Shown here: piece by piece, positions 1,365-62,383 of the stretch
Layout of the letters: each line of letters opens with the position of its first letter
How positions within the stretch are numbered: position 1 is the stretch's first letter
NCBI GenBank assembly: GCA_964016885.1
Contig: OZ024749.1
Coordinates: 3,596,001-3,660,000, forward strand
DNA length: 64,000 nucleotides
Origin: Eledone cirrhosa
Lineage: Eukaryota
Direction of reading: 5' to 3'
Made by a program: the position numbers and the translations under genes
The notes under the pieces: model-generated
Database searches by the model: none
Told to the model about the DNA's origin: nothing
What the model saw: the letters and a program-made list of their open reading frames with translations, nothing else

Positions 1365-1431
<67 letters not shown>

Positions 1432-2095
1432 TATATACATATATGTAAGTTTATATATATAATATGTAGTAACTTCAATATATGTAAAAACTATAATTTA
1501 AAATAACAGAATCATACCGAAACAAACCAATCTAATTCCAAGTTACTAGTATCCACTTTTGACGACTCGAAATTCTTACTATAGTTTGGAATATGTGAGC
1601 ACAAATTGATATATATCTAAACTAGCTCGGCAGTTCTACAGGAAATTGGCAATACAGTGTGAGTTTCTAGCAGTATTATTGTAATTTAGAGAATACAACA
1701 AAATACAACAGGAACATACTTACACACATCCAATAACAATATGCAAAGTGACAGAAATTCAAAAAACAAAATGGAAGCAAAATTTGAATTATAGCTAAAA
1801 CGGAAATCAAGTTTTCCAAGTGTCTTAATAAATCTAGAAGTACAGTTAGATTTTAGAGAAAACACCTTAATCTTTAGCTTCAATTTACGTTGAATTCTTC
1901 TACAACCCTTCAATTGGCATGAAAAGCATATATAAGTTGGTAAAATAAGGAAGATATGCATTTTGATTGGTTTAAATTTAATACTGCTCCCTAAGGGTCA
2001 TTTTCACTGGGACTGAGTCAAAGTTTGATAATAGGAAGCTTAATTTTGTAGATGTCAATTTATATCATGTCAACCTACTCCCGCAGGAATATTTA

Positions 2096-2138
<43 letters not shown>

Positions 2139-2202
2139 GTATGTATGTGCCTGTGTACTGTGAGCATCTGACTATGCAATTAAAAAGATATATATATATA
2201 TG

Positions 2203-2288
<86 letters not shown>

Positions 2289-2290
<2 letters not shown>

Positions 2291-2684
2291 AAAAGTTCTA
2301 TTTAAATTGTTGGGATACAACAAGCAAATATTTTTATAACTGATATAAAGCACTCAACAAATATTTGGAGTAAAAATACGATATTAACAAATGGAAACCA
2401 TATTTATTTCATTATACATATTTCAAGGACACAAAGTTAAATTATGGTGTGCTTTCATAAGATAACATATAATATAGAGCAGTTTTATAAATAAATATTG
2501 ACATACCGGGAGCTTCCAACAGTAATGGTTGCATTTTTTAAGGGTAAGTCAATATTTATTTATAAAACTGCTCTATATTATATTTTATCTGATGAAAGCA
2601 CACCATAATTTAACTTGGTGTCCTTGAAATAAGTATAATGGAATAAATATGGTTTTATAAATATAGTTTCCATTTGTTAATATC

Positions 2685-2687
<3 letters not shown>
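2289..2687. mobile_element. Non-autonomous fold-back PLE pLTR element (family A)
   Basis: Inverted arms ~2377-2506 and 2544-2687. Sequence matches the termini of the PLE at 23613-28090. Flanked by microsatellite. Confidence 0.85.
2582..2645 (+). ncRNA. Type I hammerhead ribozyme (minimal, PLE type)
   Basis: attttat-CTGATGA(2589)-aagcacacca/tggtgtcctt stem II-GAAA(2626)-t aagt a-TA-atggaat stem I'. Confidence 0.8.
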
Positions 2688-2716
<29 letters not shown>

Positions 2717-2789
2717 GTGCGAGAAGTAATAACTCGTTTTATTTTTGCATCTGTGCGTTTGTCGTGTCTATTCTTTCTATTATTGTATG

Positions 2790-2950
<161 letters not shown>

Positions 2951-3363
2951 ATGTATACCTGACACTACACAGAATATATGGTGAATTACAATCATATGTT
3001 AAGGGGTATTTTCGAATTGAATGGATAACATTTATCAGGGTTTCAGTATCAGTGTCGGCGTTAACATGTATAACATAATACCAATATTGTTATAAAAAAA
3101 AATGATAATAATACTGTTACTACTACAGCTACTCCTACTAATACTTCCAGTACTGCTGCTGTAATAATTATCAATAAATCTTTCTCTCATTTTTACAGGA
3201 ACATTACCATTGGGTACTGAGTCGATTATATTGATCCCAATACCAGAGGGATACTTTAACCTATCAACATTTTCCGGATGAAATGTAAAGGTGATCATGG
3301 CACGACTTGTATTTAGAAGTCAAAGATCCCTAACTAAATATTACAAAACAATTTGTATGATTA

Positions 3364-4640
3364 TACTGGGTTACAAAAAAAAAATTGTTTGTAAGTTGTC
3401 TATGTGTTTTCAACTGAGTAAGGACAATTTTGCAACGCTGAATCCGAAAATGACACCCTTTTCTCTCAATCAAGTCAGCATTTTTTTCTAAGTTGATTTT
3501 TAAGAATCAAATCTTCTGACTAGATCGAATACATTTTTGTGACATGTCGATCGATTTTTGTTAATATTTCTCATCCGAAATATGTTTTTAAGAGAAAAAA
3601 GCGTTTTCTAAGACAATTCAATAATTAAATGTTACAAAAATTGATTAGTATACATTGGATAGTAAAGATTAATAAAGGTAAGTACAGTACTACAGTACAT
3701 GGATGTTAGGTGGTCATTGTTTCTTCGAACTCCTAGAATGCTCACCAGCAGGGATGTCTCTCTTCGGAGTTCAACAGTAATCAGCCATCATGACTGCATC
3801 CCAGTATCCAACATATACCTGGCCTCCATCCCTTTAATGTCCCTATGCAATTTCTCTCTTTGCTTGTCGTTCATTGATGCCGGATTCTCAGGAAACCGAT
3901 TCATATATGATTCATATATGGAAGAGTTGTTTGAAGTTTGGAATTTCTATGGTTTGGAGAGGGCCGACAATCCATGGTACTAACTGCTACTTCTGCGCTA
4001 TTGATTTGACTGGCCGCACCAGAAAAAAAACAGAGCAGCCTCAAATATCCTGATCTTGAATTAGCACGCCGTCCTGTAACTCATTGTGATGAAATTCCAG
4101 CATCAGTATTGAAGAAAATAAAAAAAGAAGAAATGGTTCTTGATGATGATGCTCCACATTCTTTTCCCCAAAAGGAGCTAAATTATCTAGTTCGAGATCT
4201 CAGCTTGTCAAAATTCTCTGCCGAACTGTATCTAGATTGAATGAACACAAACCTCCTCTCTGACGGTACTCGCATCACCTTTATCCGCAACAGTCGTCAA
4301 GAGTACCTCCGATTTTTTCTCTGAAGAAAAACTTGTTGTACTGTACAGATATTGCGCAGCTTCTACATGATATTGTGGTGTCACAGTACAGATTCGAAGA
4401 TTGGAGACTGTTCATAGACAACAGCGAGTGATCCCTGAAATATGTTCTACTGCACAACGGCAACTAGTTTACCTCTGTACTCGACTACACTGAAGGAGAA
4501 GAATGAAGCGGTGAAGTACGTGTGGAGAGAATTCGTTATGTTCAGCATGAGTGGTTGACATGTGTTGACCTGAAGATGGTGAACCTTTTCTTGGGATAAC
4601 AGTGCTGTTTCACAATCTTCAGGTCAACACATGTCAACCA
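3364..4640 (+). mobile_element. Decayed DNA transposon, Chapaev3 (CMC)-like, left end plus partial transposase
   Basis: Terminus-like tactgggttacaaaaaa...gctgaatccgaaaatgac. Frameshifted peptides KYPDLELARRPVTHCDEIP, PQKELNYLVRDLSLSK, EDWRLFIE, SLKYVLLHNGN, CVDLKMVN. Superfamily assigned from recalled motifs. Confidence 0.65.
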
Positions 4641-10558: not shown

Positions 10559-12429
10559 ATCGATACAAAAATCAAATCGTTTTAATAGTACAGCGGAAAC
10601 AAAGTAAAATAATTCTCCCCCAAAAAAAACTGTTGAATCAATATGTGATAAATAATAACACCGTTTAACATTGTAGCTTCTAATATCTAAAATAGAGTAA
10701 TACTATCATATAGAACAATGCAATTGGAAGAATTTGATTTCCAGTTAACCATCTCAAAGTTTACAGTACCTATTTATAAAATAATATATTTGAATTATGT
10801 ACCGAATTAATGTTGTAGTTCTTTTTTGAGAATGTTTTGTTATTATTTTTAGTTTAGTTTCCTCACACTAAACACAATGGCGAAAGCTGTTAGAAAAATA
10901 TTTGCTTATGCATGGCTGACGCTCAGTAGATAACAGGTTAATGATATGAATATTTAGGAATGCTTTATATTTCCTACTATTCAATTGTAATATTATGTCC
11001 AATACTAAATCATATTCGAGGTCTTCAGTCGCCGAGCGAAGTATTATTAAGGCACAATGTTGTTTACTTGGGAAGAATAACGCTAATGACCGCATGTTTT
11101 AACCAGACGTTCTCATACTTTAGCCCCCAGACGGCTACATAATAGCCTCAACCCCCCAGAACTAATTCCAGAAACATCTGCCAACACGAATATTGTAAAT
11201 AATTTATACATAATAAATAATATAATTGTTTCTACTTTAGGCACAAGGCCAGCAATTACCCAGTGCTTTACTGGTACTTTATTTACAATACATAATAAAT
11301 AATATAATATATACTATGTAGGAATAAATATTATATATTTTATATTTTATATGAGTGTATCATTTGAAATTTAATATACTATTATATCATCTCTACCTTC
11401 CGCCACCGCTTAGACCCCAGCGCCCCCTGGACCTCCTTAACACACCCAGGGTGGTAGTACCCACTTGAAAACCCCTGTTTTAGGGGAACAAATTACAGTA
11501 TTTCGGTTGGGTGCAAAATACAACATAGATTATTATAATTAGATAAATACGCATGCGTCTTATTTAAGTCTGATATTCACTGTCCAATATTTAGTTTCGG
11601 AGGAGGTATTCAAATTTTATGCCGCATATTTATTCTGCCAGAATTTTTGAATACAATAAGTAAAGATGGGACCAGGGTGTATATGCAGGACGTACAAAAC
11701 AAATGTCAGTATTTGCAGTTGTAGGTTCTAACGGCGCCAAGTCACAATGTAACACACTACAGGGGATATCAATTACATGCTGACTGGTTCCGTCGATTAT
11801 AAGACGTGGATATAAGGGATTCGCAACTGAAATTGAATCACTTATAAAAGAGCTTTAGTAGGAAGTTCTTCCTAATGCAGTTCGGCGGTGGGGACTGGGT
11901 CTATGGAGGTAATAATTAACTCATAGGCATAATGACAAAACTAAGGTTCCGTTGTTGTCGCAGACACAAATATTTTTGCCAGATAAGGGTTATAATTCTC
12001 CAGTCTCCATAATCTCCATATATGGTTTCCCCTGGCTTCTGGTTGTTCCAAAATATGAAGATGAAACTGAGAATCTACCAAATAGAAAGCCAAGAAGACG
12101 GGCTGCGACAGAAAGAAATTCTGAAATACACATACCAGGTACAATTATCGCCTGGTTTATGTTGCCGTAGCAAAATTAAGATGCTTCGATAGGGAATTAA
12201 ATGTGACCCTAGACGGTGTGCCGTTTGGGCACTCGATGCTCATGCAGAGCAGAGTATATTATAATAGATGACGAGGAATCTATAATGCGTCAAAAGACAA
12301 TTTATTAACATATTACATTGTTTCTCCGACGAGCAGCTCAACGCAGGATCTGTTACAGATCGAATCTGACTCTGTATTCGCAAGTTCCTCAGATATGTAA
12401 CTGATATGTACTCAAAAACATAATCTGAT

Positions 12430-12929
12430 ATGTACTCAATATTTTGAATTTGTCTACAGAAATCTCTAGGCCTTTGTCACTTAGTAGAACCTTAAAGAAT
12501 TTAGCTTTTAAATAATCTCCCTTTCCTTTAAATCCATCAACCATGATTGACCCCTACTGATCTTATAGACACCTGTTAGCTTAAGTGAAACTTAAAAATA
12601 AGGAGTGGCACCCCATCCTGAACTTGTTTATAGAATTATTTCTGCCTTTGTACTCTAAAAATAAACTATAGCTTTGAAGAATTAGCTTTTAATGAATTCC
12701 CTTTTCTATCAACCAATGACCTGCACCCATCCCACTCCCACCCTCTCCTACCACTTGAAGATACCTATAAATACCATACTTATCTTTTGATACTCAGATT
12801 CCTGATGATTTCTAAAGAATGAAACAGTTCTAGTCCTGTAGAATCTAATGTATATTAAAACTTTTATACTCTGCAATGTATTGAGTACTTTACTTACTGT
12901 GGTTACCTCCGATTCAACCGAGGAATAAC

Positions 12930-12930
<1 letters not shown>
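12430..12930 (+). mobile_element. PLE 3' UTR/pLTR (family C)
   Basis: Close match to the reverse complement of 60841-61380. Ends in (TA)n. Confidence 0.8.
12796..12846 (+). ncRNA. Type I hammerhead ribozyme
   Basis: agattc-CTGATGA-tttc taaa gaat-GAA-acag ttctagtc ctgt-A|gaatct. GUA cleavage triplet, 6-bp stem I, 4-bp stem III. Confidence 0.85.
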
Positions 12931-12964
<34 letters not shown>

Positions 12965-13343: not shown

Positions 13344-13365
13344 ATATATATATATATATATATAT

Positions 13366-14055
<690 letters not shown>

Positions 14056-60247: not shown

Positions 60248-60280
<33 letters not shown>

Positions 60281-60281
60281 C

Positions 60282-60545
60282 GTAGAACACTGGTAGTTAA
60301 TATCCGTAGTGGTAGATCACTCAGTCCATGGGAGAAATGTGGTAGAAGTGGTTAGACTACAGTTGGTTCACCATGCCGAAAACAATTGTTTCACCTTATG
60401 CGGATCTTCAGGTCGGACTCGATCCGCATAAGGTGAAACAATTCTTCTCAGTATGGTGAACTAACTGTTGTGTTACTGATTCTACCAAACCAGTCCCATG
60501 GACTGAGTGTTCTGCCACTACAGATCTTCCCTTCCAGTGTTCTAC
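60282..60545. mobile_element. Fold-back pLTR element related to the 21812-22915 PLE
   Basis: Termini gtagaacactgg / ccagtgttctac. Minus-strand hammerhead at 60376-60416: ccgac-CTGAAGA-tccgcataaggt-GAAA-CAATTG-TT-ttcgg. Confidence 0.85.
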
Positions 60546-60570
60546 CTTTATTATATATATATATATATAT

Positions 60571-60730
60571 ATTAAAATAACAGATTAAAGTTTAAGCAAA
60601 GAATTGCTGCTTTCACCCTTAACGGGATTTTCTGAAACTGTTTCAGAAGATCACGTTAAGGGTGAAAGCAGCGATTCTTTGCTTAACCTTTAATCTGTTA
60701 TTTTAATAAATATTTGCTCTACGGTTCTCA
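60571..60730. mobile_element. Fold-back pLTR element related to the 15908-16860 PLE
   Basis: Arms 60571-60637 and 60639-60707. Core variant CAGAAGA...GAAA. Confidence 0.85.
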
Positions 60731-60796: not shown

Positions 60797-60840
<44 letters not shown>

Positions 60841-60842
<2 letters not shown>

Positions 60843-61701
60843 GTTATTCCGGGTTGAATCGGAGGTAACCACAGTAAGTAAGGTACTCAATACATAGCAG
60901 AGTATAACAGTTTTAATATAGATGAGATTCTACAGGACTAGAACTGTTTCATTCATTAGAAATCATCAGGAATCTGGGTATCAAAAAATAAATATGGTAT
61001 TTATAGGTCTCTACAAGTGGTAGGAGAGGGTGGGGAGTGGGATGGGTGCAGGTCATTGGTTGATAGAAAAGGGAATTCATTAAAAGCTAATTCTACAAAG
61101 CTATAGTTAATTTTTATTTTTATTTTTATTTATATTTATTTATGTTTTTAGAGTAACAAAGGCAGACAGAATTCTATAAACAGGTTCCGGGTGGCATACC
61201 ATTCCTTGTCAATAAGTTTCTCTTAAGCTAACATATGTCTATAAAATCAGTGGGGGGTCAGTCATGCTCGATAGAATTAAAGAAAAGGGAGATTCTTTAA
61301 AAGCTAAAGTCATTAAGGTTCTACTAAGTGACAAAGGTCTAGAGAATTCTACAGACAGATTCAAAATACTGAGTGCATATCTTACTATTATCTTCGAACT
61401 TCTCTTAAACTAATCAACAATATGCCAAAAATCAACAGACACATTCACAAAAAAACAAAAAAACAAAAAAACAGAAAAACAAAAAAACACACATAAAAAA
61501 CAAAAAAACACACATACTCACTCACACACTTACGCGCAACCATAAACACACACACAAACACATATACACACATAAAAACACACACACATATATAAAAAAT
61601 ATATAAATATATATAAATATATATTCATGTACACACACATACATACACACATACATACATACATACATATATAATACATATACACATATACATACACACA
61701 T

Positions 61702-61734
<33 letters not shown>

Positions 61735-61773
61735 CATATATATACACATATATATATATATATACATATATAC

Positions 61774-61820
<47 letters not shown>

Positions 61821-62298
61821 CATATAAATCGAAAATGCAACTGAAGTCCCATCTTTTTCAAAAATATATATATTTTTATTTGGCTCCCTTACCGGTCTCG
61901 CAGCTCCTCCGCCCCCCAAAAGGCGAGCTGAGATGGAGGGTCTGTGGTTTTTCTGATGTGAGAAAAACCACAGACCCTCCATCCCAACTCACCCCTTGAA
62001 AAGCAGAAGAACCGCGAAACCGGCAAAGGAACCAAATAAACATATATATTTTTAAAAAATAATATAAATAAAAAATAAATATAAATAAAAATAAAAATTA
62101 ACTATAGCTTTGTAGAATTAGCTTTTAATGAATTCCCTTTTCTATCAACCAATGACCTGCACCCATCCCACTCCCCACCCTCTCCTACCACTTGTAGAGA
62201 CCTATAAATACCATATTTATTTTTTGATACCCAGATTCCTGATGATTTCTAATGAATGAAACAGTTCTAGTCCTGTAGAATCTCATCTATATTAAAAC
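60841..62298. mobile_element. Family C element with inverted pLTR arms
   Basis: 60912-61118 appears identical to the reverse complement of ~62090-62297. Intact hammerheads at 60925-60975 (-) and 62233-62283 (+). Confidence 0.85.
61830..62059. mobile_element. Nested fold-back element with strand-polarised A>G differences between arms
   Basis: Arms 61854-61954 and 61961-62059, 6-nt loop, perfect 23-bp apical stem. Confidence 0.85.
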
Positions 62299-62305
62299 TA
62301 TATAC

Positions 62306-62383
<78 letters not shown>

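Follow-up and report, generated by a model that had tools for sequence, protein, structure and literature searches.

Edits acquired by the RNA of Penelope-like retrotransposons have most likely been written into the DNA of Eledone cirrhosa; we take the phenomenon to be real, recurrent and most likely the work of ADAR, with a probability of about 0.85. A-to-I editing is normally limited to RNA. The starting case is a hairpin in a window of 64,000 nucleotides (contig OZ024749.1, positions 3,596,001 to 3,660,000, forward strand; positions given without a locus name are those of the window), formed by two inverted arms of a repeat that we call family A. In this window copy, the A>G changes were very probably made by ADAR on a hairpin transcript, which a Penelope reverse transcriptase (RT) would then have copied into the genome. 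The preliminary description of this DNA had proposed just such a passage from RNA editing through reverse transcription to the genome, and the proposal is supported by the direction of the changes, their polarity, their restriction to RNA that can pair, and the existence of independent edited insertions.

How regular is the pattern? Pairing the arms base by base (position i with 123915-i) sets 61884-61931 against 61984-62031 and gives exactly 17 mismatches, all A.C on the plus strand, with the C in the left arm in 12 pairs and in the right arm in five, reproducing the single-polarity count first reported (12 + 5). The minus strand folds as a single long hairpin (-158.6 kcal/mol), and the plus-strand fold is interrupted by the A.C mismatches (-97.4 kcal/mol). 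The ribozyme-sense arm (61827..61957, minus strand, the edited one) carries 16 A>G changes, 12 in the core and four near an A/T run, and stops ~15 nt before the usual tail-less end of family-A arms. Beyond a loop (61955..61960, unstranded) identical to that of another copy, L002, follows the other arm, which reads in antisense on the edited strand (61958..62062, minus strand); it is truncated at 62062, lacks the edits of the first arm and has five clear A>G changes and probably another at 62041, a position that is ambiguous because its partner, 61874, differs too. The preliminary description had also noted one further change of this kind at 61859; it is indeed there, together with plus-strand T>C at 61849, 61850 and 61853 and probably 62041, the four changes from 61849 to 61859 adjoining the A/T run, where the alignment is less sure. 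Over both arms, the minus strand thus holds 21-22 A>G changes (17 in the core and 4-5 beyond it), and a stretch of 23 bp on the loop side of the stem is unedited, a point against our account. The suggestion to scan fold-back elements for polarised mismatches was taken up for the other hairpins of the window, none of which is polarised; among them, two further fold-back repeats (60565-60713 and 60280-60530) show mixed mismatches.

The direction of change follows from comparison with the family itself. A search of the animal's own genome (3.0 Gb) gave 1443 candidates; we scored 40 and fetched 25. Apart from the window copy, the 24 fetched copies are near-perfect palindromes within (TA)n. Set against the base held by most of their 48 arms, each of the 17 sites is T>C on the plus strand (A>G on the minus strand), the ancestral base being held by 45-48 of 48 arms, and the window copy is otherwise unchanged across the 80 compared columns. 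The consensus building and polarising first suggested as a check therefore return A-T at 17 of 17 sites: the direction claimed, A>G on the minus strand in both arms, holds, and the objection that a G-C consensus had decayed by C>T falls. The 24 comparison copies had been selected because they resemble the edited query, which makes the few A>G variants among them an unfair background. An exact 33-mer of the unedited family-A arm has 10,934 matches in the genome, and there are thus at least 10,934 unedited arms. The full edit pattern of the window copy recurs neither in the 40 scored of the 1443 candidates nor in exact pattern scans. L002, which a search with the loop had returned, was ruled out as a parent by two other differences, and L026, which matches over one 30-nt stretch, is no duplicate, as its flanks and edits are other.

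What kind of element is family A? We fetched ten regions defined by pairs of 33-mer matches a few kb apart. In one, L120, a 770-aa frame (1417-3726) with RVT_1 plus a C-terminal GIY-YIG domain, both over the cut-off, lies between family-A repeats; in another, L127, an RT frame lies between two family-A repeats on the same strand. In the L120 translation, the linker is of the form CX4CxxC and the endonuclease core has two cysteines, a layout ascribed to the Neptune and Nematis clades (PMC8557442). Judged from its sequence, family A is an EN+ Penelope-like element (PLE) of the Neptune/Nematis layout, which does not tell these two clades apart. The window copy itself is pLTR sequence only; given the RT and GIY-YIG frames flanked by family-A repeats, its hairpin is a 5'-truncated pLTR with its inverted copy. 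Most of the copies L002-L025 carry a 65-nt extension (tail) on one arm only, and EN+ PLEs are described as having an inverted 5' pLTR copy and a tail of 30-40 bp at one end (PMC8557442). Loops differ in sequence among L002-L025, and more native 5' sequence is found now in the tailed arm, now in the untailed one, variation that simple cDNA fold-back does not fully explain. Of the earlier view that a whole hairpin was transcribed, edited and inserted, the editing route stands; the stand-alone hairpin element gives way to a Penelope pLTR fold-back. Non-LTR retrozymes are presented in a preprint as tandem non-coding monomers, each with a hammerhead (bioRxiv 10.64898/2026.07.22.740005); we rejected this identity because the arms here are inverted pLTR fragments of a coding element and not tandem hammerhead monomers. 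The available part of the same preprint (bioRxiv 10.64898/2026.07.22.740005) makes no mention of ADAR.

The ribozyme-sense arm includes a degenerate minimal type I hammerhead (61886..61923, minus strand) with the U3-A8 core variant, in which A>G changes hit both UUGAAAA and GAAA. This variant is known from minimal hammerheads of PLEs (PMC4209133). The family-A majority keeps the hammerhead core and a short palindromic helix III, and an unedited arm folds helices I and II, though weakly (z -0.55). Rfam returned no hammerhead match at E<=10 for the unedited copy, whole or as a single arm, and otherwise only hairpin-driven matches of miRNA type, all below the gathering score. The hammerhead first claimed is hence present as a core in the family majority and absent from both window arms, without an Rfam match behind it, and the motif fits a putative minimal type I hammerhead of the PLE type in the family-A pLTR. 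Its loss from both window arms is as described before. It looks like an incidental by-product of editing, with no sign of selection for it, because in a perfect hairpin the motif would in any case be paired away and because hammerhead mutants of a lizard PLE did not affect insertion in vitro (PMC11167929). Nothing suggests that the edited hairpin copy has a function; it appears to be a dead fossil.

Is the window copy alone? We scanned the genome with patterns that allow A or G at every A and fix one or two sites to G. Such edit-pattern scans gave three matches in one case, 37 in another (three with 8-9 further edits, the others with 0-2) and 50 in a further one; when one site was fixed to G there were 42 matches, of which 37 had no further A>G change and five, at four loci, had 3-9. 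The same four family-A insertions recur across the scans: the window copy, L026, L027 and L087. Single A>G variants occur in ~0.3% of family-A arms per site, at which rate eight further matches among 15 sites would arise by chance with a probability near 1e-16 per copy (rough arithmetic). A G>A control scan yielded 117 matches, and among the 100 listed none had more than two further changes of nine possible, with no clusters; an antisense scan yielded 48, in which the window copy had two further changes and one other match had one. Edit patterns and flanks differ among the four loci, which answers the question whether the G variants are a normal subfamily: they are not. Edited insertions are rare in family A: there are four of them, compared with at least 10,934 unedited arms. 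Three older copies (L031, L037 and L086) with three A>G changes each amid other changes were left out of the edited set. Elsewhere (G000:C8:39545195-39869607), six family-A arms share the same single variant at a spacing of 50-90 kb, likely a tandem segmental duplication.

The sister copies also date the editing. L026 has 24 A>G changes and zero other substitutions, L027 has 17 and one C>T, and neither has a full partner arm at its own locus. Both are edited only where a palindromic transcript pairs, yet they have no partner arm, and the duplex must therefore predate insertion. L087 has 8-9 A>G changes in each arm, identical in both, and a few other changes, and L026 has a short fold-back in which the one edited base recurs in mirror image; such sharing means that the inverted arm was made after editing and from the same template. 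In the sister copies, then, editing preceded DNA synthesis. The window copy alone among the edited copies seen has arm-specific edits on one strand, and separate edits per arm, all on one strand, would point to one hairpin RNA copied end to end.

The placement of the edits is that expected of a double-strand-dependent enzyme. Pooled over the four family-A loci, edits are present at 69 of 234 As in the part that can pair and at none of the 54 tail As (p=8e-8). In the window copy, 17 of 45 core As are changed, about 40%, and the adjoining family-B part, described below, has no A>G among ~211 sense-strand As. A 5' G is disfavoured in the pooled family-A set: 4 of 43 As with a 5' G are edited compared with 65 of 191 without (p=0.0008; site-level permutation p=0.005). 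The preliminary description had counted two of 17 changed As with a 5' G, and the count is correct; as a bias in the window copy alone it is not significant (2/11 versus 15/34, Fisher p=0.16). Depletion of 5' G is reported to be the mark that ADAR editing has in common across systems (PMC4365171, PMC5625713). On the 3' side, hyper-editing in invertebrates is reported to prefer A and not G (PMC5625713), whereas family A shows an excess of G (20/36 edited), a figure inflated because the search patterns fixed such sites. Taken together, A>G changes clustered on the transcribed strand and confined to the double-stranded part of the RNA make up an ADAR-type signature. Genes with an adenosine-deaminase domain (A_deamin), a domain that occurs beyond ADAR, are present at several loci of the genome. 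At G000:C6:13644405-13646174, such a domain lies in two pieces in a 700-aa open frame, an intron-poor ADAR-like gene.

Another Penelope-like family, family B, has an unedited insertion at this locus, and the edited family-A hairpin sits at its 5' inversion junction. On the minus strand, the order is an inverted tail-less B pLTR, the A antisense arm, the loop, the A sense arm, a B microsatellite, the B body and the tailed B pLTR. The last of these (60843..61149, minus strand) is an unedited 3' pLTR with its tail and a hammerhead-like motif; the body with the internal microsatellite (61150..61826, minus strand) is 96-100% like the best 40 B copies over 61330-61580; the inverted pLTR (62063..62305, plus strand) is identical to the left B arm over ~220 nt; and (TA)n flanks the B-A-B unit on both sides (62310..62382, unstranded, and 60801-60842). 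Compared with the majority of 29 copies, chosen by likeness, the B part (60843-61620) has three differences, none of them a sense-strand A>G, and a genome scan for family B gave no edited copy. L138 has the same family-B layout without the family-A hairpin. A search for an unedited parent that shares the B-A junction was negative, an exact 27-mer of the left junction having a single match in the genome; this result, like that of the family-B scan, speaks against our account. One B insertion would have taken up the edited A hairpin, either through a template jump or through read-through. Of the claim that the hairpin was inserted, what stands is an edited copy in the genome; a clean separate insertion does not, in view of the position at the family-B inversion junction. 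An older family-B copy (12427-12961), 85-95% like the B copy at the hairpin locus, lies elsewhere in the window.

A further Penelope-like pLTR family, family C, widens the picture. Its copy in the window (13360-13960) is unedited, forms a near-perfect 260-bp palindrome (13420-13960) and has a canonical hammerhead-like core. A genome scan with two sites fixed returned 14 matches at 11 loci, the matches L163, L166 and L173 being the second arms of L162, L165 and L172. Among the matches listed, nine loci have 17-47 A>G changes over ~260-350 nt and far fewer other changes. The sense-strand A>G bias is strong at nine loci and mild at one (L164); L171 was removed from the edited set, its changes being mixed. 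Inverted arms carry the same edits at L160, L161, L162/163, L164, L165/166, L167 and L172/173. For 5' G, a rough count with loci left out and subfamily sites unmasked showed no avoidance, with 25 of 91 versus 121 of 373 (p=0.38). In L161, L165, L169, L170 and L173, the last ~75 nt of the pLTR, together with the tail, have hardly any edits (0-1 of 50-57 As in each copy), even though the first part exists in both arms; the end that binds the RT may be shielded, or copying may be limited to RNAs that are intact there. By eye, A>G changes in L161 (900-1440) and L172/L173 continue upstream for several hundred bases, into the body on the endonuclease side, and the inverted arm mirrors them.

How might the window copy have arisen? 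The sequence of events would begin with family A, which yields many near-perfect palindromes, one of which would have been transcribed through both arms and folded into a duplex of ~100 bp. The pattern suggests that ADAR then deaminated ~40% of the hairpin As (17/45 in the core), and that an RT at work on family-B RNA copied the edited A hairpin end to end. We see an even chance that this RT jumped from family-B RNA onto the A hairpin; that the hairpin lay upstream in the same transcript as B and was read through is possible, and separate insertion of A followed by trimming is unlikely. The inverted B repeat beside it is a DNA-level duplicate, exact and unedited.

Could the two arms instead derive from two separately edited RNAs, or from edited copies that later recombined? 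Every other edited copy seen is single-armed or symmetric, and sequence of two families is already combined at this locus; both facts would suit this origin. It requires, however, an antisense-edited template, which the antisense scan shows in no other copy, the arms are joined at an ordinary family loop also found in L002, and a single hairpin gives the shared polarity in one step; we regard it as very unlikely. Slightly less credible still are changes made in DNA or at reverse transcription, whether by adenine deamination of a cruciform or an RNA:DNA hybrid or by biased misincorporation. ADARs can act in vitro on the DNA of hybrids (PMC12925331), and a fold-back cDNA also carries both arms on one strand. 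Yet deamination of first-strand cDNA predicts T>C on the sense strand, whereas the copies show A>G; tails made in the same reaction are untouched (0/54), as is the adjacent B part; and L026 and L027 are unable to form a hairpin at their own loci.

An error of base calling or assembly in the hairpin, or polishing with edited RNA reads, deserves mention as the locus is known from assembly sequence and clusters of mismatches can be sequencing errors, though those reported were G>A (PMC2873906). Such an artefact would have to follow the element's strand, leave the tails alone and appear mirrored on the two strands of L087 and several family-C loci, in an assembly in which 24 other family-A palindromes and the 260-bp palindrome of the window (13420-13960) are near-perfect, and we give it a lower probability than either of the preceding alternatives. 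Negligible, finally, is the chance that G-C is ancestral or marks a normal subfamily from which the remainder decayed by C>T. Single A>G variants do exist at ~0.3% of arms per site, but the family majority is A-T at 17/17 sites, and neither edit patterns nor flanks agree among the four edited loci; the 48-arm majority, the 10,934 unedited 33-mers and the scan with one site fixed refute it. Editing of a single hairpin RNA before its reverse transcription remains our preferred account of the window copy.

Known systems offer partial parallels. A>G hypermutation is on record for avian retroviruses (Rous-associated virus, avian leukosis virus; Hajjar and Linial 1995 and Felder 1994, as cited in the review PMC12925331). 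As in those viruses, clusters of ADAR type, affecting up to about half of the As, fall in an inverted repeat of a reverse-transcribing element (PMC12925331). The avian cases come from culture or infection; here the element is an endogenous retrotransposon family, and its many independent insertions stand in the assembly of an animal genome. With APOBEC editing of LTR retrotransposons (PMC4866542, PMC2873906) it shares a host deaminase, clustered and strand-biased genomic changes, and detection of copies against a consensus. APOBEC, however, deaminates C in cDNA, producing G>A in vertebrates, whereas here A>G lies on the RNA strand, only where RNA is paired, in a Penelope-like element. The same two papers report APOBEC DNA editing of retroelements to be absent in 19 invertebrates (PMC4866542, PMC2873906), and we found no APOBEC-type clusters of sense-strand G>A in family A, either in the 48-arm comparison or among the 100 matches listed from the control scan. 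RNA of a lizard Penelope is heavily edited (PMC5625713), and that element and a palindromic frog Harbinger resemble family A in the tight fold-back substrate, the density of edits and, for the four pooled family-A loci, the depletion of 5' G (PMC5625713, PMC4365171); in those repeats the edits are in RNA only, and here they are in DNA. Reverse transcriptase plus GIY-YIG, a U3-A8 minimal hammerhead, an inverted 5' copy, a tail at one end and (TA)n are all as in EN+ PLEs of the Neptune/Nematis type (PMC8557442, PMC4209133, PMC11167929). The descriptions of EN+ PLEs given in these papers, as far as available, mention no edited copies and no sequence of a second family carried along at the inversion junction; both occur here. 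Within the literature searched, which covered few subscription journals, no report of ADAR-edited genomic retrotransposon copies turned up.

What does this mean for the animal and its Penelope elements? The low rate of edited copies implies a small mutational load, and their value is as a record of mechanism. On balance, we lean towards a reading in which ADAR recurrently introduces heritable mutations into the Penelope elements of this animal, as an A-to-I counterpart of APOBEC DNA editing. By the same modest preference, the edits would serve as barcodes of single RNAs, showing inversion of the pLTR after editing from the same template, read-through by the RT of a 100-bp inosine-rich hairpin, and RT jumps between RNAs of different families. 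The origin of the inverted ends of Penelope elements has been named as unresolved (PMC8557442). Edited copies in the genome would show that retrotransposon RNA comes into contact with ADAR in cells that transmit their DNA and that such RNA can still be copied, and they open two questions to tests from genomes alone, namely whether ADAR restricts retrotransposons by editing them and how Penelope elements build their inverted ends.
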